64,000 bases of DNA from a virus (lineage: Duplodnaviria; Caudoviricetes): IMG/VR virus record IMGVR_UViG_3300042268_000564; one strand, given 5' to 3'. Position 1 is the first letter of the stretch; the number at the start of each line of letters is the position of its first letter. Below, piece by piece: positions 4,297 through 64,000 of the stretch. The position numbers and the translations under genes are program-made. The notes below the pieces were generated by a model. That model worked only from the letters and a program-made list of their open reading frames with translations, was not told where the DNA came from and made no database searches.

Positions 4297-4343
4297 GCGA
4301 TTTAAGAAAAAAATATGGTAGATTTCTCTACCATATTCAGGAT

Positions 4344-4595
4344 TTATATTTTTCTTATGTTGATAATCACGCCGTTTTTTTGAGGATAAAACTCAACCAG
4401 AACCTCATCGTCAACTTTTGGGACAAAGTTTAACTGTTGTATCAGCTTTTTGACGAGCGTGGGTTTCCCGTTCAGGTCGAAAGTTACCTCAATTTGCATC
4501 CTTGACTGTAGGTCAGGGTAAATGCCAGTAATTTTGCCCTTATATCTTTTGGGTTGAATCTTGCTTTTGTCTATATTTTTACGCCAATATGTCAT
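4344..4595 (-). CDS. small beta-rich protein, possibly OB-fold; last gene of the FN3 operon
   Basis: ATGA overlap with the 267-aa FN3 gene; GKITGI...PKVDDEVLVEF pattern. Confidence 0.5.
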   Translation of the reverse strand: MTYWRKNIDKSKIQPKRYKGKITGIYPDLQSRMQIEVTFDLNGKPTLVKKLIQQLNFVPKVDDEVLVEFYPQKNGVIINIRKI

Positions 4596-5395
4596 TGTTC
4601 TTCCTGCGTCCAAGTAATGGTCATGTCGTGAGTTTCTTGGTCGACCACAAGGTCAATGTCGGCAGGAGCTGGCAGAACAGTTTGACCGCCAGCAGATGCG
4701 CTAAAGCTTACGTTTCCCGGAATCTTTAATGGTGTCGAGTCACCTCTTGCATCAGTAGCCTGTATCGCAAACCAATAAGTTGTGTCTGCGAGCAGATTGT
4801 AAAGCGTAAGAGATGTTTCAGTTTCAGCAACAATTACAGGTGAATTGGCAGGTATTAACCCATCGGCATCAAGAGTTAAGCCTGTGCCGTTATAATCGCT
4901 ATGGTAATCCATTTTATATAAAACCTTGTAACCAGTTGCGCCAATTACAGATGCCCATGTAAGCGTAATGCTGTTGTCTATATTGCGGATAATGTCTGCA
5001 TTTGCAGGTTGGTTGATTAAATTTAAAGTTGTAAAATTTTGAGACTCGACCGAAATGGTACCATTGCCAGTAACCGACCAAGAATATGTTGTATCTGAAT
5101 CGAGATATTGGTTCAACGTGGCACTTGTTACATCTGTAACGTTTTGTTGAATGTTGTTTATGCCATCCGTAACAGATAACAGGTAATTATTATCAAATGT
5201 CTTTACATCAAACCTGTTCGGGAATGTGTATGTGTCTGGCTGGTCGTTTATAACAGTTTTAATTCGCCAGTAATAAGTCCCTGATGGCAACGTAACGTTA
5301 ATTGCAGACAGAGAAATTGAATTTCCTGTTACAGCTATAGAGTGCAAAACGGTTGAAAAAATCTGATTGTCTGAAATTTGCAAATAATTTAGCAT
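4592..5395 (-). CDS. FN3/Ig-like protein: two N-terminal domains lacking strands A-B, one complete FN3, C-terminal A-B-only fragment
   Basis: YLQIS...GTYYWRI; YLLSV...TTYSWSV; SITLTW..GYKVLY..TTYWFAIQAT; ends PAPADIDLV..DMTITW; own RBS GAGGAAAGGA. Confidence 0.75.
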   Translation of the reverse strand: MLNYLQISDNQIFSTVLHSIAVTGNSISLSAINVTLPSGTYYWRIKTVINDQPDTYTFPNRFDVKTFDNNYLLSVTDGINNIQQNVTDVTSATLNQYLDSDTTYSWSVTGNGTISVESQNFTTLNLINQPANADIIRNIDNSITLTWASVIGATGYKVLYKMDYHSDYNGTGLTLDADGLIPANSPVIVAETETSLTLYNLLADTTYWFAIQATDARGDSTPLKIPGNVSFSASAGGQTVLPAPADIDLVVDQETHDMTITWTQEEQ

Positions 5396-5410
5396 AAGAA
5401 TCCTTTCCTC

Positions 5411-8400
5411 TTAAGGCACTGTCACAGTAACAGTAACAGGCTCTGAGTTAGCATATGTAATGCCATTTGTTAGTTCATATCTGTTTTTAACGACAATGTT
5501 ATATGTTAATACTGTGCCCGATGCTTGACCTAAAATCGCATCCGTATGACTAAATGTTGTTGCAGATTTGTCAGCCATAATATCAAGTCCTGTTTCAGCG
5601 CAAGTGATATGGTAAGCATAATGCAATTCCAAGCCATTAATAACATACTTAAGATGAAACCAGTTCAAATCAACGTTGTTCCCGTTAAGAGAAGCATTAA
5701 ATGAAGAAACAGGGTTTATTTGCGTATACATTCTTTCTGGCACAGGATAGCTACTGGCAGGGTCGTAATAGTAAGACAGCCCTGTGGATGATGTTTTTGG
5801 CTTGACAAGGATGTCAAATTCTAACCCGTCAGTTATAGATAGATTGGTAAATTGATAAACATCTGGAGTAGTGGCGATGTTTGTAGCTTGCACTACACCG
5901 CCAACTAATGCTTCTACTGTATAATCAGTTGCGCTCGGTGAAGATGTCCAGCTAATATTTAAAGTTTCAACATCGCTGCTAACATGTTGTAGTTGTAAGT
6001 TTTTAGGTGCAGTATAAGCTGTTATTGGGGCACTAGCCACAGACAGATATGGGTTGCCTTGCTTTTGAATTTGTGCAGTGATTGAAAAGGTTTCGCCAGT
6101 AGAGTTTTCTGGCGAAATAAAGCTGGAAATATTCTCTGCATAACTTGTAGCTGGCAAAGAAGAGGTTGTTTCTTCCATAGTAGATAAATTCACGAGGTGT
6201 AATTGTAACAAATCGCCAGATTCATAATTACTGCCATCCCAGCCCACACGAATTGTGTCAGTCTGAATTGAGCCAGTTTGTGAGAGTCCAGTGATGGTTG
6301 CAGGTGCGAGTTGTAATGCTACAGTTGGATGCCCTGATGTCATTGTTGCGCCATCACCATTATAAGATTCGACTTTAGCAAATAAATTAACAGCAGCAAC
6401 AAGCCCCGTTATTTCATATTGAGTGTCGACTGTTTCACCTGCTAATGTCCAAGTAGAGCCGTCGCCATAATAAACTTTGTATAATGTTGCGCCGCTGGAA
6501 GCAGACCATTCGATTGAAGCACTCGTTTCAGATGCATCAAGCTGTAAAAGATTGGTTACAGGCAATACTAATGGCAATAATGTAGTAATGGAGAGCGTAT
6601 TTGATGGAGTAGACCTTGTATTTATATCATTGTTGTTTTCTTTATATACAAGGAATGAAAAATCTTGCGCACATGCCAAAGTTAACGTTTTTTGTGTGCC
6701 TTCATAAACATTATGAATTTCATCAGTCGTCAAATTATGGAGATAGTAATAACCGACCACACCCTCAGACGAGAGCCATGTTAATGTAACCTCGCAATTT
6801 AATTCATCAATAGTCTGTTGTGACAGCAATGTCAAGGCGGTAGGTGCAGCGCATAATGTATTTGCCACTAAAGATGTTTCCGCTGAGACAAGGCTTTTTC
6901 TCTCTGATGTTATATAGCAATTAAAATACTGCCCCGCATCTATTGCAGCTAAGGTTATTATTGCTGAATTTGTGCCAGCAGGATAATTTTGGTCAAATTC
7001 AATCACGCTACTGCCTTGTTTTGTAGCCCAGACTCTATATGACTCTGCGTTAGACGATTCAACCCATCCCACCTCAATTGATGTTTCAGTTTTTGATAAT
7101 ATTGTGAAATCTGTTATAAGTTCAGGTGGGACACTTGCAGTTGTTACATTCAAAATGGGTGTTTTTTCAGAGGGCTGGATAGCATTGGCTGAACTTGGAT
7201 TGCTTGCGAGTGAATACATTTGCCAATCATAATTCGTCTCAGGAGTTAAATTGGGCACAGTAAAGTGGTATTCCGACGAGGAGATTACGAGTATTCCTCC
7301 ATAATCATCAGTATTTAAAGATATGTTCCCATCCGCAGTCTCGAAAACATACCCGTAAGCATCAGCATTTGAATAAGAGCCTGTATATGACATAGGTGTC
7401 CACGCAAAAGTAATTGACTCAGTCGTTGTAGATGAAACTATTAGGTCGTTGATTGGCGGAATGGCGGTAGTAACCCATATGTCTACAGGTTCGGAATATG
7501 TCCCATTTTTTATGGAGGTTATTGTATAGTGATAATTTCCATATGTTAAGCCCGTATGGATGTAATTTGTGTCTGTCGGGAGAGGTGTAAATGTTGCATT
7601 GGACGTCATATTAGTTTCAACAATGTGAAAGCCATCAACATCTGTTTCAGCATCCCATGTTAGCTCTATAGATGATGCAGTGACTTCGCCAAAGCTTACG
7701 TTCTGAACTGGAGCTGGCAACGTCGTTATCTGCAATGGTGCCGAAGGAACGGATTCTATGCCATATTTTATAGCTACAAGATAAAGATTATAATTGGTAT
7801 AAGACGTAAGCCCTGTTATTGTTCGAGAAATAGTTGTTGGAAAAGAAGTTGGCTGGTCAAAAAATTCATTTACGAGTCCTGTATCGTCATATATTCTATA
7901 GCCTTCTACCGCTGCAATTGCATCAAAAGAAACTGTTGCAGTAGTTGATGTCAATCCTTGTACAGATGGCGACACTAGCGCAGTGGTTTGTGTTGCGGTT
8001 TTAAACACTACAGCCTCTTGTTCTACACCGTCTTTTATCCCTGCGAGATACAGTATATATTGTGCCCCCACAAACAACCCTGTTAGCTCTAATGTAGTCG
8101 AACCGGACGGCAACGTCTCGTTAATATTACTTCCACCTGAGATACAATTACCCCATATATGATAGCCATTATTACAGCAGCCGTTATGGTTCCAATTTAA
8201 AGTGAAACTGGTTGTCGTTACATTAGTAGCGTTAATCCCTGTGACTAGCGTTGAGGCCAAAGTTTGCACAGTTACTTCACTAGTTGCTGATTCTACGCCG
8301 AGAGAATCTATTGCCGACACGCCAAGTGTGTGCGATGAACATGGTGTTAATGTGGTAAATGAATATTTCGACAATAGATTGGATACATTCTCTACCAGCA

Positions 8401-8593
8401 CAGAATCTTTGTAAATATTGTAACTGACAGCATATGGGTCAGGTTGCCACATCAAATCGCAACTTTCTGCCTGCAAGTTTAGAATTTTAAGAGTGGGCGG
8501 CGACTCTGTTGAGACGACCCACTTAAAAGTTAAATCTTCAAAATTATCTGTTGAATTATGCGCTGGGCTAACAAGTGTTATTTGTCTTGTCAT
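5411..8593 (-). CDS. large multi-fibronectin type III repeat protein (probable virion fibre/decoration)
   Basis: about ten S/T-rich repeats with LxW...Y.IY...GL...Y pattern over 1060 aa. Confidence 0.85.
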   Translation of the reverse strand: MTRQITLVSPAHNSTDNFEDLTFKWVVSTESPPTLKILNLQAESCDLMWQPDPYAVSYNIYKDSVLVENVSNLLSKYSFTTLTPCSSHTLGVSAIDSLGVESATSEVTVQTLASTLVTGINATNVTTTSFTLNWNHNGCCNNGYHIWGNCISGGSNINETLPSGSTTLELTGLFVGAQYILYLAGIKDGVEQEAVVFKTATQTTALVSPSVQGLTSTTATVSFDAIAAVEGYRIYDDTGLVNEFFDQPTSFPTTISRTITGLTSYTNYNLYLVAIKYGIESVPSAPLQITTLPAPVQNVSFGEVTASSIELTWDAETDVDGFHIVETNMTSNATFTPLPTDTNYIHTGLTYGNYHYTITSIKNGTYSEPVDIWVTTAIPPINDLIVSSTTTESITFAWTPMSYTGSYSNADAYGYVFETADGNISLNTDDYGGILVISSSEYHFTVPNLTPETNYDWQMYSLASNPSSANAIQPSEKTPILNVTTASVPPELITDFTILSKTETSIEVGWVESSNAESYRVWATKQGSSVIEFDQNYPAGTNSAIITLAAIDAGQYFNCYITSERKSLVSAETSLVANTLCAAPTALTLLSQQTIDELNCEVTLTWLSSEGVVGYYYLHNLTTDEIHNVYEGTQKTLTLACAQDFSFLVYKENNNDINTRSTPSNTLSITTLLPLVLPVTNLLQLDASETSASIEWSASSGATLYKVYYGDGSTWTLAGETVDTQYEITGLVAAVNLFAKVESYNGDGATMTSGHPTVALQLAPATITGLSQTGSIQTDTIRVGWDGSNYESGDLLQLHLVNLSTMEETTSSLPATSYAENISSFISPENSTGETFSITAQIQKQGNPYLSVASAPITAYTAPKNLQLQHVSSDVETLNISWTSSPSATDYTVEALVGGVVQATNIATTPDVYQFTNLSITDGLEFDILVKPKTSSTGLSYYYDPASSYPVPERMYTQINPVSSFNASLNGNNVDLNWFHLKYVINGLELHYAYHITCAETGLDIMADKSATTFSHTDAILGQASGTVLTYNIVVKNRYELTNGITYANSEPVTVTVTVP

Positions 8594-8611
8594 GTTTTAT
8601 ACTCCTCTGCT

Positions 8612-9943
8612 TCAAGCTGCTGGCGTCGTGACAGTGATTAACAAATCGATACCAACCCAATTACTGTTTTCATCTTTCGCTTTAATGGTTATGTAATTAT
8701 TCGTTTCAGGCTGGCTTGTAACATCCCAATATAGATTCGGGGGGAAAACTGTTTGTGATAAAATAACCCCATTATTTAACACGGTGTATGAGACGCCATC
8801 ATTGAACGGAAGCCAATTCACTGTGAAGGAGGTTGGCGTGAGATTAGTTACCCAAATTTGCGCAAGCGTTGTTGCGTCAATCGTTTCAATGCTGGTGTAG
8901 CTGGTTGCAAGATGCCCTCGCACGCCTAACGTGTAAGCGGTATCAAAATTCAAGCCTGTAAAAATATAAGACGTGGATGTTGTAGCAGCTATGGGTGTCC
9001 CGTTTAAATACACTGTATAGTTATCTGCACCGATATCAAACCATGTCATCGTAATGCTTTCCCCTTGCACGTCGGCAAGTTGTGGATTAAGCGCAGGAGG
9101 GTTCCATGATGAAGTTGTAACGATAATAGATGCTGGCGACGTTTCAACAGTGCCAGTCGGCGTGTCGCTTATCGCCACCAGTTTAAAAGAAAAAGTCGTG
9201 TCGGGGCTTACATCTGTAAAAACTTTATTGCCGATACCAATAACAAAAGTTTCTTCATATGACGACAAAGTGTCCCACAAGCGATAAGACTCTGCCCCCG
9301 AGGATTCAAACCATTGCAAAGTAAAGCCTGATTCTGTTATGGCAGAGGCTGTGAAGTTCGTAATGTCGTCGGGTGGGGAATTAACTGTTATTGTAGTCAC
9401 GGGGGTTAATTCGCCATCGACAAGAGCCGTCAAAGAAAAATCATTGTTGCTGCCAGCGGGGATTGCTATTGTAGCTTGTGTGATGTCTGCTGTAAAAGTC
9501 GAATCATATCCTAATGAATCCGCCCACACACGGTAACTTGTAGCGGATGGTATCGGCAGCCAAGACAATATTACCTCGGTAGAGGACAACATGTTAATAT
9601 CCGCAGTAACAGATGTGATTATATTAGGGATAAAACTTATGCTTGATTCACCATTGACGTTAACCGATGACACACCTAAGTTTTGATAAGAATTGGGAGC
9701 CAAATTCGCGATGTCAAAATAATTAACGATTGTATTGCCGATATTAATTTCATCTACGTATATATTGTAACTGGTTGAGTCTGGAACATGGTTCCATTGC
9801 AATGTAGCAGATGTTGCGCTATTGATTGATGATACCACTAAATTAGTCGGCGCTGACGGCGAAAGCCCCCATAAAAAGCTAGGCTTTATCGGAATGTCGA
9901 CATCATCTTGCGCTGGCGATATTAATTTAATTTTGCGAGACAT
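8612..9943 (-). CDS. multi-fibronectin type III repeat protein
   Basis: about five FN3 repeats (ATLQW..SYNIY; FTLQW..SYRLW; ITMTW..YTVY..GLNFDTAY); AGGAGAG RBS. Confidence 0.85.
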   Translation of the reverse strand: MSRKIKLISPAQDDVDIPIKPSFLWGLSPSAPTNLVVSSINSATSATLQWNHVPDSTSYNIYVDEINIGNTIVNYFDIANLAPNSYQNLGVSSVNVNGESSISFIPNIITSVTADINMLSSTEVILSWLPIPSATSYRVWADSLGYDSTFTADITQATIAIPAGSNNDFSLTALVDGELTPVTTITVNSPPDDITNFTASAITESGFTLQWFESSGAESYRLWDTLSSYEETFVIGIGNKVFTDVSPDTTFSFKLVAISDTPTGTVETSPASIIVTTSSWNPPALNPQLADVQGESITMTWFDIGADNYTVYLNGTPIAATTSTSYIFTGLNFDTAYTLGVRGHLATSYTSIETIDATTLAQIWVTNLTPTSFTVNWLPFNDGVSYTVLNNGVILSQTVFPPNLYWDVTSQPETNNYITIKAKDENSNWVGIDLLITVTTPAA

Positions 9944-10057
9944 ATATCTCTCCTTCGATGAGTTCTAAGAATACTTTAATTTATAATATGCTTGAAAATG
10001 AAAAGCCTTGCCAACAGGCAAGGCAAAAAGAAGAATAAAAAAATACCTTATTACACG

Positions 10058-10234
10058 CTACCGGAAATGTGAAAAAAAATAAGACACTACATTAACGTAA
10101 ATGAGACCGAAACAAATTATTAACAACTTAACTCTAATTCTAATCGTCAAGCCGTCAATAATTATAAAAAATATGGCTTGGCAGGCTAAAGTCAATATAA
10201 CGCCCACAATGAGAACACCTATAAAGGCAGCCAT
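10058..10234 (-). CDS. small two-helix membrane protein (58 aa; absent from ORF track)
   Basis: hand translation MAAFIGVLIVGVILTLACQAIFFIIIDGLTIRIRVKLLIICFGLIYVNVVSYFFSHFR; GAGG RBS. Confidence 0.55.
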   Translation of the reverse strand: MAAFIGVLIVGVILTLACQAIFFIIIDGLTIRIRVKLLIICFGLIYVNVVSYFFSHFR

Positions 10235-48245: not shown

Positions 48246-49703
48246 ATGGGACTGCTAACAGAAATCGTTGTAGGCTGGGACAGTATAGAGCCGATTCTTC
48301 TCGCGTGCATTGCCTGTGAAAAGAATATTATTCTTAGAGGTAAGCATGGTGCCAGTAAAACAGCAGTGGCAAAAATCATTGCTGAATCTCTTGGCAGTAA
48401 GCATCGCCACTACGATGCTACAAAGGCTGACCTGATTACAATTGCGGGTATTCCAAACCCAAAATCAATCTCAGACCCTGAAAAGCCAAGGCTGGAATAC
48501 GCAAAGCACGACCAAACCATCTGGGAAGCCGAATACATCAGCATCGACGAACTTACTCGTGCCCCAAGAGAAGCGCAGAACCTGTGGCTTTCAATTCTTG
48601 AAGAAAAAACTCTTCAGGGGAAACCTCTTGTGTATAAGGCTGCTATTGCAACCATGAACCCTAGCACCTATGCGGCTACCAACAGGGTTGACGAGGCATT
48701 GTTTGACCGCTTTTACGCTGTTATGGACGTGCCTGACATTATGCGTGAAGGTGATGCCAGAAAAAATATATTAGCAATGCTGCAAATGACCAGAGACGGC
48801 AAAACTGTTCGTGATGAAAAACAAATTGCGGTGCTTGGACAAGCAATGGATGAGATTCGTTCTACATTCCAAAGCTTTAAGGCTCAGGATGCTCTTGTTA
48901 ATCCTGTTGAGAGCTATGTGGCTGCTTTCTTTGTTGAGCTGGCTGCTAACCACAAGGGTTATATCTCAGGCAGAAAATTTGACCATGTAAGAGACTGCAT
49001 TTATGCAGTAGCTGCATATTTCAAAACAATGGAGAACCTTGGCAGCAAAGTTAATGCACCTGACGGGTTATTTGCTATCGCTGCACAGCACGCAGTAACC
49101 TTTGTAGTTGGAACTGCTCTGGATATTCAAGCAACAACCATATTCTCTTGCCATGAAAAAGCCGTAAAAGTGCTTAAAGGGCTGTCTGGTTCTGCCTCTG
49201 ACACTATCCGCAAAGAGATTCATGCAGCAAATACCATCAAGAAAAGAATTGCTGTATTGGAAAAACATATCAACGCAGTAGCATCATTACCACCATCTGA
49301 GATGCACGCTGTAATTGCTACAGCGACTAATGATTCAATGCTGGTTGACTTTAAAGATAAGAAGGTAGATAAAAAATCTGCAATCCTTGGCGTGGCTGAA
49401 GCTGTTGACAATATTGTTCCATTTCTTGAAAAACTGCGCACTATGAAAAATCCTGCTGCGAAAGCTGCCGCAAGCTCAATGGCTGGCTCTTACCTCAGCG
49501 AAGGGCTGGCTCAGATTAACAATTTCATTGAATCAATGTCAGACAAGCTGCTGGGCAACAACACTGTAAGGTATGTAACCTACAATAAACTGGCTGGCAA
49601 AAAAGTTGAAAATCCTTTCACTAAAGTTTACGAGAACGGATTCAGCAACGGCATGACCGCAGCGGTTGAAAACCTGCTTAAAGAAATGCAGAAAATCAGT
49701 TGA
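48246..49703 (+). CDS. MoxR/RavA-family AAA+ ATPase
   Basis: GKHGASKT, IDELTRA...QN, ATMN, EALFDRF; N16 promoter 48186-48213. Confidence 0.88.
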   Translation: MGLLTEIVVGWDSIEPILLACIACEKNIILRGKHGASKTAVAKIIAESLGSKHRHYDATKADLITIAGIPNPKSISDPEKPRLEYAKHDQTIWEAEYISIDELTRAPREAQNLWLSILEEKTLQGKPLVYKAAIATMNPSTYAATNRVDEALFDRFYAVMDVPDIMREGDARKNILAMLQMTRDGKTVRDEKQIAVLGQAMDEIRSTFQSFKAQDALVNPVESYVAAFFVELAANHKGYISGRKFDHVRDCIYAVAAYFKTMENLGSKVNAPDGLFAIAAQHAVTFVVGTALDIQATTIFSCHEKAVKVLKGLSGSASDTIRKEIHAANTIKKRIAVLEKHINAVASLPPSEMHAVIATATNDSMLVDFKDKKVDKKSAILGVAEAVDNIVPFLEKLRTMKNPAAKAAASSMAGSYLSEGLAQINNFIESMSDKLLGNNTVRYVTYNKLAGKKVENPFTKVYENGFSNGMTAAVENLLKEMQKIS

Positions 49704-49760
49704 CAATTTTAACAGCTTGGTTATAATAAAGATAACCAAGCTGTTAAAGGATAAAAAACA

Positions 49761-51674
49761 ATGACTAAAAAAGCCGAGCAAAAAGAAAAAGTTGAAAAGA
49801 AACTGGACAGATTCGAGCTTTCCAAGAAGCTTGGAAAAGTCCTGAGTGAAATCAACATACATGGATTGGCAGGGCATGTAAAACTTGCTAGTCCTGAGAA
49901 GATATCAACTGCTTGCTGGCAATTCAATGCCAAGACAAAAGCGTTTACAATTTCGGTGAATATCGAGCTTGTCGACGAGCTTGAGAATGACGAGCTTCGC
50001 ATGTTGCTCGAACATGAACTGTTGCATCACTTCAGGTATCAAAACTGCGACAATCGCAATCCAATCATGACAAATATCGTATTGGATACGGCTATCAACA
50101 AAATGCTGTATCTCTACAGTCCTGAAGTAATGTCATCGATGTCTGATAAAATCTACTTTAAAGAAATGACGAGAGAGCAGGGGTTAGCTTCACCAACAAT
50201 TCTTGCTTGCCCTACACTTTTGCCAGAAGAAATAGAAGCTATTCCTGATGAAAAGATACGGGAAGCTTACATTTCTATTTGGGGCAGCAGACAAACCCCT
50301 GCCGACTATGACCAAACATTGCCTGACCCTACCGAATTGTTTTTTAATCTGGTTCAGATTATTTCTGAAGACGATGCAAGCTCACCTTTCGGGGAGAATT
50401 CCGATGAGGATGGCAATGGTGAGGGTTCAGACGGTGACGGTGAAGGTGAAGGCTCAGATGGTGATGAAAGTGAAAGCTCTAGCTCTGGCTCTGGTAAAGG
50501 TAAAAAATCAAAGGGCAAAAACGGCAAGAAGCAAAAGAAACAGAAAAAGAAAAATCGCTGTAAAATCGTTGATGATGAGGATGAAGAGTCCGATGGCGAA
50601 GGTGATGACAGCGATGGTTCCGGCTCTGGCAAAGATAAAGACGATAAAGAATCTGACGACAAGGAAGATTCAGATGGAAGTGGTTCTGGCAAGGGTGATG
50701 AAGAGTCTGATGAAGACTCAGACAGCGATAATAGCGGTGACGGTGACGATGAGGGTGATAGCGACCCTGACCGTATGGACGAGGGGTATAGCGACATCTC
50801 TGATGAAGTGGCTGAAATGGACAAAGCCATGTCTGACAAAGCCACTGGTGCAGGAAAGGGTGCCAGCTCAATTCAAGTATGCACAAGCATTACCACACAG
50901 ATTAATGCCAAAGAGCTTGAGAGACGACTGCAAGAACTTATTCTTGACCGCACTATAGAAGAAATCTCTAATGCTGTTATTGGTAGCATGGGTGACGAAA
51001 TCGTTTCTCTGCCTTATGCAATAAGACCTACCAATACAACATTGACACATATTGCCTGTGGGCTTAATGAATCAATCCCTCTTTACTGGAACCATAGAGA
51101 CGGCAATACAAAGCCAAAGCTTGCTGTTTATATCGATGTGTCTGGCTCAATGAGTGGGTTAATCCCACTGGTAAGGTCAATTATCATTAAGATAACTGAG
51201 TATCTACCGTCTATCGTGTTTGCCTTTGATACAGGTGTAGCACCTATTTATACCAGTCATTTTGCTGACGCTCACCTTTGCGGCGGCGGAACTAGCTTTG
51301 ACACTGTATTTGACCACATTTGCGCATCACCAGAAGAGCGCAGGGCATGGCTTGAGAAATTTATTAAAAACTGGCAAAAACAATTAGACAGATATGACAG
51401 CGATATGCGTGGCATTGCTGTTGATGGAGGTATGTTGGACTCTGAAATCATGACAGATGATGCACCTGCGATTCTGTTGATTACAGATGGTGAAGATAGA
51501 TTGGACAACCACTATATTAAAAAGTTCAAAGAACTTAATAAAAAACTCATTGTATTGCAATTTGCAGGGGGGTGGGGTGGTTTTAATGTGAAAGATAGTG
51601 TGTTTTATCCTATCGCAAATCAACTGTTCCTTGCTAACAGTAATGGGGAAATTAAAGAAAAACTCTGTGCGTGA
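49761..51674 (+). CDS. metallopeptidase-like (HExxH) + acidic linker + vWA domain protein
   Basis: EHELLH; D/E/G/S linker; MIDAS DVSGS, GGGT, ITDG; N16 promoter 49700-49727. Confidence 0.88.
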   Translation: MTKKAEQKEKVEKKLDRFELSKKLGKVLSEINIHGLAGHVKLASPEKISTACWQFNAKTKAFTISVNIELVDELENDELRMLLEHELLHHFRYQNCDNRNPIMTNIVLDTAINKMLYLYSPEVMSSMSDKIYFKEMTREQGLASPTILACPTLLPEEIEAIPDEKIREAYISIWGSRQTPADYDQTLPDPTELFFNLVQIISEDDASSPFGENSDEDGNGEGSDGDGEGEGSDGDESESSSSGSGKGKKSKGKNGKKQKKQKKKNRCKIVDDEDEESDGEGDDSDGSGSGKDKDDKESDDKEDSDGSGSGKGDEESDEDSDSDNSGDGDDEGDSDPDRMDEGYSDISDEVAEMDKAMSDKATGAGKGASSIQVCTSITTQINAKELERRLQELILDRTIEEISNAVIGSMGDEIVSLPYAIRPTNTTLTHIACGLNESIPLYWNHRDGNTKPKLAVYIDVSGSMSGLIPLVRSIIIKITEYLPSIVFAFDTGVAPIYTSHFADAHLCGGGTSFDTVFDHICASPEERRAWLEKFIKNWQKQLDRYDSDMRGIAVDGGMLDSEIMTDDAPAILLITDGEDRLDNHYIKKFKELNKKLIVLQFAGGWGGFNVKDSVFYPIANQLFLANSNGEIKEKLCA

Positions 51675-53028: not shown

Positions 53029-54696
53029 ATGCCTTTTGACAAGAACACGAAATTTTTTTCCAGCCCCATAATTTATCAGGGTCGTGGCGTTTACATCAAT
53101 GGTGGTAAGACTTATAAGCCTATTGCCATTGATGTCCGTCATTTTATTCAAGTCAACGACTTCTTCTTGGACAGGATTGTTAAAGAAGAAGGTATCTGGG
53201 ATTTGCCTGACAATGATAGCATTGCTCTGGCATGTTTGCGCTTTGTAAGGAAACATATCAAATATACCCCAGACAAAGAGCAAATGGGGGTAGACGAATT
53301 CTGGACATTCCCTAATGAGACTCTTGCTTTAGGAAAAGGCGACTGCTTTGCTGGTTATGAAGAGATTTACACTCAAAATGGAATAAAAAGAATTGACGAA
53401 TTGAAAGTTGGCGATATCGTCCTGTCTTACGATTTTGAAAAGAAAGAATATGTTTACAAGCCAATTGTTGCGGCATGGGAAAAAGATGAGCTGGAAATAA
53501 ATCGAGTTTATTTTAGGAATGGACAATGGATGGACGTTTCTGAAAACCATCCTATGTGGTGCAGGTATAGTCAAAAACATTCTAATTATGAAAAAAGATA
53601 TTTGTCCTCTATCGACTTAACAAGATGGTGGAAAAGAAAAGTTCCAATAGCAAAAAAAATTCCTTATCAAATCAAAGACATGAAATGGCTGACAGACGAC
53701 TTGTGCGTAGTGTTGGGACATTTTCTTGCTGAAGGATGGATTAGACCTAGAGTTAATGTTCCTCATGAGGCATGGACAAGTGGTAGCGAAACAAATACTC
53801 ACATAATTCCTATTTTAGAAAAATATGACATGCCATACAAAACTAGAATCAATGGGTCAGGCGTTACATGTCTAAGATTTTTGGAAGAAAATTTTGCAAG
53901 TTTTCTTTGCAAGCAATTAACAAATAGTTTTGATATCCATTTGGAGGAAAAAATATTTCATCTTCCTGAATCAAAATTAGACAAAATCCTTTATGGATAT
54001 TGGCTTGGCGATGGCACCAAAAATTTAGGGAAAGGGGACAAAAGGGGATTTAAGCAAAGTCGGGAGGCTGTTTATTCAACCTCCTCAAAACAATTTGCCG
54101 CTGATATCCAACGTATCGGATTGCAAATAGGCAAAACCTTCCATATTCAATTCCAGAAAAATCATGGGGGCGCAGGTAAAAAGCCAATTTATAGAATTAC
54201 TTATAATCCTGTTAGCTTCTTTTTGCAAGAACATGGATATAAGGATGTTTCTGAGGTTAGTATAAAAAAGATAGAGCGTTTGGAAAAAACAAAGATGTAT
54301 GACATAACTGTAGCAGATACTCATACGGTTATAATGAAAAATGGGATTATAACTCATCAATGCGACGACGGGTCCATCCTCCTTGCTTCTCTTATGAGAA
54401 ACGCTGGGATTCCTGCATCTAAAATCCGTGTTTGTGCTGGATGGGTAGATGCGGGTAAAAATGCACCACTTGGTGGACACGCTTACACTATCTATAAAGC
54501 TTCTGATGGTGAATTTCGTGTACTCGATTGGTGTTACCTTCCTAATGATTTGCCAGTCTTGCAAAGATTGCCGTATTATCAAGAACCTCGTTATAAAGAT
54601 ATTTGGTTTACTTTTAATGATAAAGGGTCTTGGTCTAAGAATCGAATCCCAACTACAATTTTTAAATCATGTCGAAAGACGAGTTTGCAGACATGA
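53029..54696 (+). CDS. transglutaminase-like cysteine protease interrupted by an intein
   Basis: exteins FPNETLALGKGD|CDDGSILLASL...GHAY...LDW (C-H-D triad). Confidence 0.88.
   Translation: MPFDKNTKFFSSPIIYQGRGVYINGGKTYKPIAIDVRHFIQVNDFFLDRIVKEEGIWDLPDNDSIALACLRFVRKHIKYTPDKEQMGVDEFWTFPNETLALGKGDCFAGYEEIYTQNGIKRIDELKVGDIVLSYDFEKKEYVYKPIVAAWEKDELEINRVYFRNGQWMDVSENHPMWCRYSQKHSNYEKRYLSSIDLTRWWKRKVPIAKKIPYQIKDMKWLTDDLCVVLGHFLAEGWIRPRVNVPHEAWTSGSETNTHIIPILEKYDMPYKTRINGSGVTCLRFLEENFASFLCKQLTNSFDIHLEEKIFHLPESKLDKILYGYWLGDGTKNLGKGDKRGFKQSREAVYSTSSKQFAADIQRIGLQIGKTFHIQFQKNHGGAGKKPIYRITYNPVSFFLQEHGYKDVSEVSIKKIERLEKTKMYDITVADTHTVIMKNGIITHQCDDGSILLASLMRNAGIPASKIRVCAGWVDAGKNAPLGGHAYTIYKASDGEFRVLDWCYLPNDLPVLQRLPYYQEPRYKDIWFTFNDKGSWSKNRIPTTIFKSCRKTSLQT
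53344..54360 (+). mobile_element. intein (339 aa) with LAGLIDADG homing endonuclease, C-terminal Gln
   Basis: starts CFAGYEEIYT; SENHP block B; LGHFLAEG and LYGYWLGDG; ends MYDITV...IITHQ followed by Cys. Confidence 0.92.
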
Positions 54697-59584: not shown

Positions 59585-59678
59585 TTCTGCGCCGTTCTTT
59601 GATTTTCTACGTAATCTTTAAAGTATTATAGCTATTGAGCATATCGCTCAAAAAAAGTTATGAGGAGATAATAAATTT

Positions 59679-62447: not shown

Positions 62448-64000
62448 TTAGATTGCAGTGATTGTCGCAGGAACTTCTACGCCGTTTACTTTGATTTTGT
62501 AAGAATCTGCCCCATTCGGTGGTGTATCCCAAGTGATAACGACGTCGTTTGTTTTTGTGTCAGTAATTATACTGTTTAAAGGTGCGTCAGGCAGAGTGAG
62601 TATATTTACAATCAAAGTCGCAGACTCGGATTCATTCCAACTAGTTTGATATACCTTGAAATTATAATCACTGTTTGCTGATAAGCCCACTACACTTGTT
62701 GATAGAATGTCGTTCGGCATTGTCTGAATAGGTATGCCGTCTTGATATAATGTGCATGTTGCATAAGTCGCAGAAGTAATCAAAACAGTTATATCTGGCA
62801 CATCTCCCAATCCAGCGTATTCATATCCAAAACCTGTTATACTTCCATCCCCATGTAATACATAATTATAAAAATAATTGGATTGCAAACTTATAACATT
62901 TGTTAGTTCAGCAGGGATATTATTTATTGCCCCGTTATAATCGCTCCCCCAACCAACAATAGTATTGTCAGCTTTTAAAGCCATGCTTCTGAAAAAACCA
63001 CCAGTTATATCAATAACACCAGTTAAGCCAGTTGGCACGTCGCATTGTCCATAATCATTGCGTCCCCAAGCTACTACCGTGCCATCTGTTTTAAGTGCTA
63101 ATGAGTGATTCGGGCCTGCGGCTATTTTTTTAACACCAGTTAAGCCAGTTGGCACGTTGCACTGACCGTAATCATTGCGCCCCCAAGCTACTACCGTGTT
63201 GTCGGGCATGAGAGCTAATGAATGAAAATTGCCACAAACGATTTGTTTAATATCTAGCAACTCTGTGAAAGGCACATCACATTGTCCATACGTATTATCA
63301 CCCCAAGCAACAATATTACCAATTGCTTTTAAAGCAAGGCAAAAATCTTGTCCTGCGGCTATTTTTTTAACACCAGTTAAGCCAGTTGGCACGTCGCATT
63401 GTCCGTAATCATTGCTCCCCCAAGCTACTACCGTGCCATCTGTTTTAAGTGCTAATGAATTCCATCTACTTGCCACAGCCTGTCTAACACCAGTTAAGCC
63501 AGTTGGTACGTCGCATTGACCGAAGTTATTGTCGCCCCATGCGACCACTGAGGCATCCGCTTTAACGGCTAATGTGTGAATAGCACATGAGCTTGTACAT
63601 AAGCCTAAAACGTCTTCGGTAGACGAAGTTATAAGATTATCCCAGCTTAAGTCAACTGTGTTTTTTGTTATTGCGTCAACAGTGATAAAACCACTAGCGG
63701 TAGTTGTAGTATATGTAGACGACATTGCTGATTCGTTGGTTGCGCTGACAGCTTTAACTGTAACGTTATATATAGCGTTTTCAACAAGCCCACTAAAACT
63801 TATGCTGTTTGCCGTTGTGGTGTTATACAAGCTGCTGTTCAAATATACCTCATAAGATGTTGCGTCAGCAACCGCATCCCACGTCAAGTCAAAGCCTGTG
63901 GGGTGAGAATTCGTCTCTATTAAATTCGTTGGCGAATTTAATAGCGTCAAGGTTGTTGCAATATTCCCTGCCGACTCACCTGTTTCATTAACTGACTTAA
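62448..64000 (-). CDS. FN3 + 7-bladed RCC1-repeat protein (5' end lies beyond the window)
   Basis: frame open to the window edge (KSVNETGESAG...); seven HSLAL..DGTVVAWG.N.YGQCDVP repeats, ~117-bp DNA units. Confidence 0.9.
   Translation of the reverse strand, partial: KSVNETGESAGNIATTLTLLNSPTNLIETNSHPTGFDLTWDAVADATSYEVYLNSSLYNTTTANSISFSGLVENAIYNVTVKAVSATNESAMSSTYTTTTASGFITVDAITKNTVDLSWDNLITSSTEDVLGLCTSSCAIHTLAVKADASVVAWGDNNFGQCDVPTGLTGVRQAVASRWNSLALKTDGTVVAWGSNDYGQCDVPTGLTGVKKIAAGQDFCLALKAIGNIVAWGDNTYGQCDVPFTELLDIKQIVCGNFHSLALMPDNTVVAWGRNDYGQCNVPTGLTGVKKIAAGPNHSLALKTDGTVVAWGRNDYGQCDVPTGLTGVIDITGGFFRSMALKADNTIVGWGSDYNGAINNIPAELTNVISLQSNYFYNYVLHGDGSITGFGYEYAGLGDVPDITVLITSATYATCTLYQDGIPIQTMPNDILSTSVVGLSANSDYNFKVYQTSWNESESATLIVNILTLPDAPLNSIITDTKTNDVVITWDTPPNGADSYKIKVNGVEVPATITAI

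Follow-up and report, generated by a model that had tools for sequence, protein, structure and literature searches.

Three adjacent minus-strand genes in the window, a 64,000-nucleotide stretch of viral DNA corresponding to C1:31068-95067 within one 393,839-bp contig, probably encode a branched virion fibre whose proteins would be held together by non-covalent fold completion. The genome contains tail sheath, baseplate and wedge genes, along with a weak major-head match, and the source phage is therefore a jumbo myovirus (394 kb). The ORFs, lengths and termini of the three genes agree with those given in the first-pass annotation. Fibre A (443 aa; 8612..9943, minus strand; homologues P0164-P0166 and in L025) consists of a type-A tag, an orphan hairpin of strands A and B, followed by five FN3 domains. 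Fibre B (1060 aa; 5411..8593, minus; homologues in L032 and L025) consists of a type-B tag followed by about ten FN3 domains, and in both fibres the complete domains run from residue 29 onward. The third protein, a hub or adaptor (267 aa; 4592..5395, minus), comprises two units of strands C-G, termed sockets 1 and 2, one complete FN3 domain and a C-terminal A-B hairpin. Each gene has a separate translation start with its own purine-rich RBS. In the proposed assembly, the A-B hairpin of fibre B would complete hub socket 1 and that of fibre A hub socket 2, producing two predicted seven-stranded FN3-type sandwiches. With less confidence, the C-terminal A-B hairpin of the hub would complete the half-domain at the N-terminus of a protein from the tail cluster, most likely the product of C1:241160-241702, so that the hub would turn one anchor site into a two-fibre branch. 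We infer that the fibre sits on the virion, is expressed late and serves adhesion to the host or to a surface.

The anatomy of the half-domains was defined with a module HMM of 99 positions, built from 86 intact L.SP-type modules of unrelated proteins. A model of a bacterial relative of the module resembles 6i60_A (Z 11.0, rmsd 2.8 over 105 residues), with many FN3 arrays scoring equally, its Atlas neighbours carry PF25788 and fn3, and the intact relatives of the module are predicted to have an FN3-type fold. Tag A (fibre A residues 1-28; 9860..9943, minus) and tag B (fibre B residues 1-28; 8510..8593, minus) map to HMM positions 4/5-24, while hub sockets 1 (residues 2-67; 5195..5392, minus) and 2 (residues 68-124; 5024..5194, minus) map to positions 36-87 and 41-81, and the halves are thus complementary without overlap. 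The seven strands of an FN3-type sandwich in one chain (A-B-C-C'-E-F-G) are present in the fibre domains and in hub residues 127-230 (PF00041; PF25788-like L.SP module), but in neither the tags nor the sockets alone. Joining a tag to the first hub unit covers HMM positions 4/5-80 at 31-38 bits, and among 2519 candidate starts genome-wide the best acceptor for either tag is the hub N-terminus (30.9 vs 11.8 and 38.0 vs 19.2 bits). For tag A and tag B alike, unit 1 gives a higher score than unit 2, and the HMM scores give no decision on which tag belongs to which socket. In the FN3 topology, strand G ends at the pole from which the next domain continues, which is also where strand C starts, and the direct G-to-C link between the two hub units therefore fits a tandem array in which the hairpins are supplied in trans.

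Tag A residues 1-32, tag B residues 1-32 and hub residues 1-125 were folded together by complex prediction. The ipSAE values were 0.63, 0.70 and 0.70, against 0.16 for the best of three controls, with contacts agreeing at 96% or more and a hub pLDDT of 88; 58 of 80 solved pairs and 2 of 110 mismatched ones attain the ipSAE mark, a calibration that applies only roughly here, the job being unlike those used to derive it. The prediction seated tag B in socket 1 (tag residues 22-23 contacting hub residues 27 and 43) and tag A in socket 2 (tag residues 22-25 contacting hub residues 90-93 and 106-108). In both predicted sockets, strand B of the tag pairs with strand E of the socket, which is the B-E pairing of the FN3 sandwich. 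Since the halves of a split domain may pass complex prediction through their likeness to solved FN3 folds, the result supports the geometry, not the binding. Folding the hub alone by AlphaFold2 with a two-sequence alignment was uninformative (pLDDT 39.7), and the low value is no evidence of misfolding. The earlier proposal that the two tags complement the two hub sockets is upheld by conservation of the break points, by independence from gene order and by the passing complex prediction, and we regard docking of this kind as highly probable.

A different reading would keep only socket 1 as a socket, with the second C-G unit a self-sufficient appendage and the two fibres competing for one site. 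The preference of both tags for unit 1 in the HMM scores would fit this reading, as would L028, where only a type-A tag gene lies beside the hub. In addition, the large bacterial proteins P0021, P0023 and P0050 consist of AB-CG-CG repeats with a 172-aa period, one A-B for every two C-G units, so the second C-G unit might go unfilled. However, the model of the hub fills both sockets, replacement of tag A lowers the score to 0.16 and the hub pLDDT to 63, and the tags form two subfamilies. Moreover, the complete domains of the bacterial model (pLDDT 94.7) have a paired strand E, which is unassigned in the orphan unit, suggesting an open groove. The bacterial repeats may therefore be either arrays in which the second unit stands alone, which would weaken the case for socket 2, or multi-socket scaffolds; we favour the latter, at one locus, because strand E is unassigned and because the gene preceding P0050 has an orphan A-B hairpin at its end. 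Altogether, competition for a single site is unlikely, and filling of both sockets is the reading adopted below.

The split into three ORFs is not an assembly error, because the contigs agree, homologous hubs keep the break points and one relative places the hub first. The hub was found on 11 contigs from several samples; four other assemblies cover the entire region 4301-10100 at 100% identity, and three further assemblies match it in part at 99.98-100%. Five homologous hubs, with 29-48% identity to that of the window, retain both break points: all six members of the family begin at strand C and stop 1-7 residues past strand B (strand-B Trp), two of the homologues having extra FN3 domains between these conserved ends. 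That the half-domains are non-functional remnants of rearranged FN3 genes, or an artefact of assembly, is consequently the least probable of the alternatives; repetitive FN3 genes are in general prone to recombination, but the identical sequence recurs in several samples, the break points persist at such protein identities, and the genes have their own RBSs and a conserved promoter motif. Conservation has already largely refuted this reading.

A search of related genomes for ORFs with tags, as the first-pass annotation had recommended, recovered type-A and type-B tag genes beside homologous hubs. In three phages, a single hub occurs with one tag of each type, in two gene orders: hub, A-type gene and B-type gene in L032, and A, B and hub in L025. 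In L025 the type-A tag is internal (L025:1380-1715), near the C-terminus of a longer RCC1/FN3 fibre and followed by one last FN3 domain, and it is still an orphan. The break points are thus conserved while gene order and cargo change. The bracket-like nesting previously described is reproduced by the pairing in the complex prediction, but the corresponding gene order is not conserved and is therefore not part of the mechanism. Similarly, the notion of interchangeable fibres has to be narrowed, given that the tags fall into two subfamilies (within-type scores of 46-71 for A and 39-56 for B; between-type scores of 10-49) and look socket-specific rather than freely interchangeable.

These comparisons also bear on whether the halves are joined covalently, at the RNA or protein level, into one chain by readthrough, splicing or ligation. 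Both junctions in the window are in frame, and that between B and the hub has a single stop; among relatives, however, 6 of 10 junctions are in frame, against a background of 27 of 65, which is no enrichment, and there are junctions with 2-3 stops and junctions out of frame. The gene order is reversed in L032, and with the tags at N-termini, hundreds of residues from the sockets, readthrough or splicing would join them in neither order. There is no invariant Lys in either tag family that could form an isopeptide bond, and covalent joining is accordingly very improbable, non-covalent completion remaining the preferred reading. No fused ancestor with both tags and both sockets was found in a search of 1.84 billion representatives or in a search of longer proteins, which weakly supports its absence. 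Searches for relatives found none in viral_contigs, no match to the hub among cultured phages and, in metagenome_contigs, only distant bacterial proteins with generic modules.

The third A-B-only fragment reported at the end of the hub was confirmed at about residues 241-267 (4595..4675, minus). It lies behind the complete FN3 domain of the hub (about residues 127-230; 4706..5017, minus), which is of the subtype preceding the anchor in all tail-bearing proteins. In total, 13 distinct proteins stop 1-8 residues past the strand-B Trp behind a related FN3 subtype, and seven of them are not hubs, having GLUG/RCC1, LRR or plain FN3 heads. The locus itself behaves as a slot for cassettes, flanked by a phosphoesterase gene and an 83-aa gene, and cassettes are exchanged in it. 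The slot holds A, B and the hub in the window; in L030, the syntenic slot lacks a hub and contains a single tail-bearing LRR fibre in place of all three genes, and in L032 it holds a 1586-aa fibre with the tail in addition to a hub, A and B. Given the tail on non-hub fibres and the cassette swaps at the slot, the hub tail thus appears to be an anchor common to unrelated fibres, and the trio of hub, A and B would be a branched substitute for a single fibre.

The 83-aa gene (4344..4595, minus; homologues in L032 and L030) overlaps the hub stop and always closes the fibre cassette. It is 71-74% identical across three phages (window, L032 and L030), far more conserved than the fibres, and gives a weak hint of an OB-fold (Pfam E 0.13). 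A terminator-like hairpin, a consensus match only, lies 3' of it (4311..4338, minus).

The first-pass annotation left open whether the hub docks on another protein or polymerises. Head-to-tail polymerisation would place the tail hairpin in socket 1 of the next hub, with the tags capping or decorating the chain, and two scores are compatible with it: the L.SP HMM gives 29.1 bits for tail and unit 1 together, and among 2600 donors for socket 2 the tail comes 5th. Unit 1 by itself, though, already reaches 27.4 bits, and the L.SP signature that marks the socket-type module is missing from the tail. Socketless fibres also bear this tail and the L030 slot has no hub, while in three phages two tags match two sockets, all of which makes polymerisation quite improbable. 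Docking is favoured instead because the tail is common to non-hub fibres and because a candidate acceptor lies in the tail cluster.

This candidate, C1:241160-241702, is outside the window, approximately 200 kb away, in a tail cluster after baseplate genes, and belongs to a family of six members (52-66%) that always start at strand C. With the HMM of this FN3 subtype only, it is the top-ranking of 1537 starts as a partner for the hub tail, and in the opposite direction the hub tail leads 2600 termini as its complement, both by small margins (19.2 vs 16.1 bits; 19.1 vs 15.6); it was not at the top with two other HMMs. By hhalign (probability 29%, E 6e-4), global alignment failed and local alignment was weak, and Atlas searches with the acceptor and the 83-aa protein returned only leads under 0.9. 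We therefore lean only modestly towards this protein as the acceptor of the hub tail. Three proteins of the tail cluster, including the candidate acceptor, have a seemingly common C-terminal domain (L009:669-4307, 5161-5700 and 7154-8185), which may serve for onward attachment of the acceptor.

The promoter-like motif TAAAGTATT occurs 21 times in the genome, compared to 7.4 expected, with 18 copies within 150 nt of an ORF start, mostly 27-60 nt upstream. Copies in the window are at 9970-9978 (minus), 35 nt upstream of the fibre A gene, and at 59619-59627. It lies 33-46 nt before gene A, the candidate acceptor gene and two other half-domain fibre genes, an arrangement that suggests co-expression, and it is kept upstream of homologues in L032, L030 and L021. 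We consider it a candidate late promoter of the clade. The shared motif and the position of the candidate acceptor also hint, indirectly, at a place for the complex on the virion.

The view that no such system has been described for phage FN3 proteins holds for this architecture, but the principle has a phage precedent. In Lactococcus phage Tuc2009, a 25-residue hairpin of BppU completes domain 2 of BppA to give a titin-like domain (PMC4742702), so fold completion between proteins of a phage virion is already known. In both cases a hairpin of about 25 residues from one virion protein completes the beta-sandwich of another and attaches an accessory adhesion protein, here in prediction only. Tuc2009 has one joint, with a C-terminal donor on the baseplate protein of a small siphophage, whereas the present system has N-terminal or internal donors, long FN3 fibres and a two-socket hub with a third joint, whose predicted partner lies some 200 kb away. 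BppU-like_C gave a sub-threshold match (E 0.0015) on an intact FN3 domain of fibre A, and no Tuc2009 chains were among the PDB sequence matches for the sockets. In the Ackermannviridae, the tailspikes of CBA120 branch through complete gp10-like XD domains of TSP4 (PMC8825819); the likeness lies in a baseplate-anchored adaptor with several separately encoded, exchangeable receptor-binding proteins. XD domains, however, have complete T4 gp10-like folds, sit on trimers and bind the surfaces of their partners, in contrast to the FN3-type fold completion predicted here, and the hub has no Pfam or PHROG match to a gp10-like domain and aligns to FN3-type modules. The likeness to the systems of Tuc2009 and CBA120 would be one of working principle. 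A literature search found no paper on a two-socket FN3 hub, most subscription papers being outside its reach. What is new is the bivalent branching hub, together with the use of several different split points within a single genome; the principle is known.

Chaperone-usher pili also contain incomplete Ig-like folds that are completed by the N-terminal extension of another subunit. That donor-strand exchange involves one G strand, a chaperone and an usher, and yields a linear polymer in the periplasm, whereas the present donors are two-strand A-B hairpins starting from residue 1-5, with no signal peptide, in a phage cassette locus where no such machinery was seen, and the product would be branched and finite. 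Recruitment by several sockets recalls the cellulosome scaffoldin, a multi-socket scaffold that recruits tagged cargo through cohesin and dockerin, which are complete folds. The tag-catcher logic recalls SpyTag/SpyCatcher, an engineered and covalent pair; unlike in that pair, no conserved isopeptide residues are present here.

If the model is correct, a jumbo phage could swap or multiply its adhesion fibres with the tail unchanged, each fibre needing merely a tag of about 28 residues or a C-terminal anchor. The tags and sockets would be natural, probably orthogonal pairs on an FN3 scaffold, and matching orphan half-domains across a genome would provide a rule for reading assembly order from sequence. 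As a tentative extension, which we hold to be possible but doubtful, the whole fibre apparatus of the clade might be a genome-wide plug-and-socket network, in which FN3/Ig domains split at several loops serve as orthogonal connectors for the products of genes as far as 200 kb from one another and hubs set the branching, the same chemistry being used in bacteria as scaffolds of 10-20 sockets that recruit a tagged partner.

Other genes of this genome start or end mid-domain at other loops. A 1363-aa FN3/RCC1 fibre (window 62448-64000; C1:93515-97606, minus) ends after strand C' and is best complemented by the N-terminus (strands E-F-G) of the product of C1:140852-143752 (48.8 vs 37.9 bits), with an RCC1 propeller inserted at the same B-C loop. 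The latter product itself ends mid-domain, and the expected partner of its tail was not recovered by HMM. L032 has an unrelated 848-aa fibre with the same ending as the 1363-aa fibre. In the tail cluster (L009; C1:240284-255999), a 344-aa gene starts with strands F-G and a 90-aa gene lacks F-G, while 280- and 378-aa genes lack strand G; these truncated termini are kept in L021, L023 and L024, and a search for an acceptor of the 90-aa gene (C1:245362) gave none.

Among bacteria, L031:508-12458 encodes a secreted protein of 3296 aa in which the AB-CG-CG unit is repeated ten times. The gene before it, of 667 aa, ends in an orphan A-B hairpin, and the two are possibly a multi-socket pair of the scaffoldin kind; in P0021 and P0023 the repeats number 16-19 or more. 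No close relative of these scaffolds was found in genome_contigs. We also observed that database protein P0002 (L001:10001-10726) is mis-started, the gene beginning 25 codons earlier at L001:9926, as called correctly in L032. By eye, window 53029-54696 encodes a 555-aa transglutaminase-like protein that is apparently interrupted by an intein, and window 48246-51674 a MoxR-type AAA ATPase followed by a VWA/metallopeptidase-like gene.
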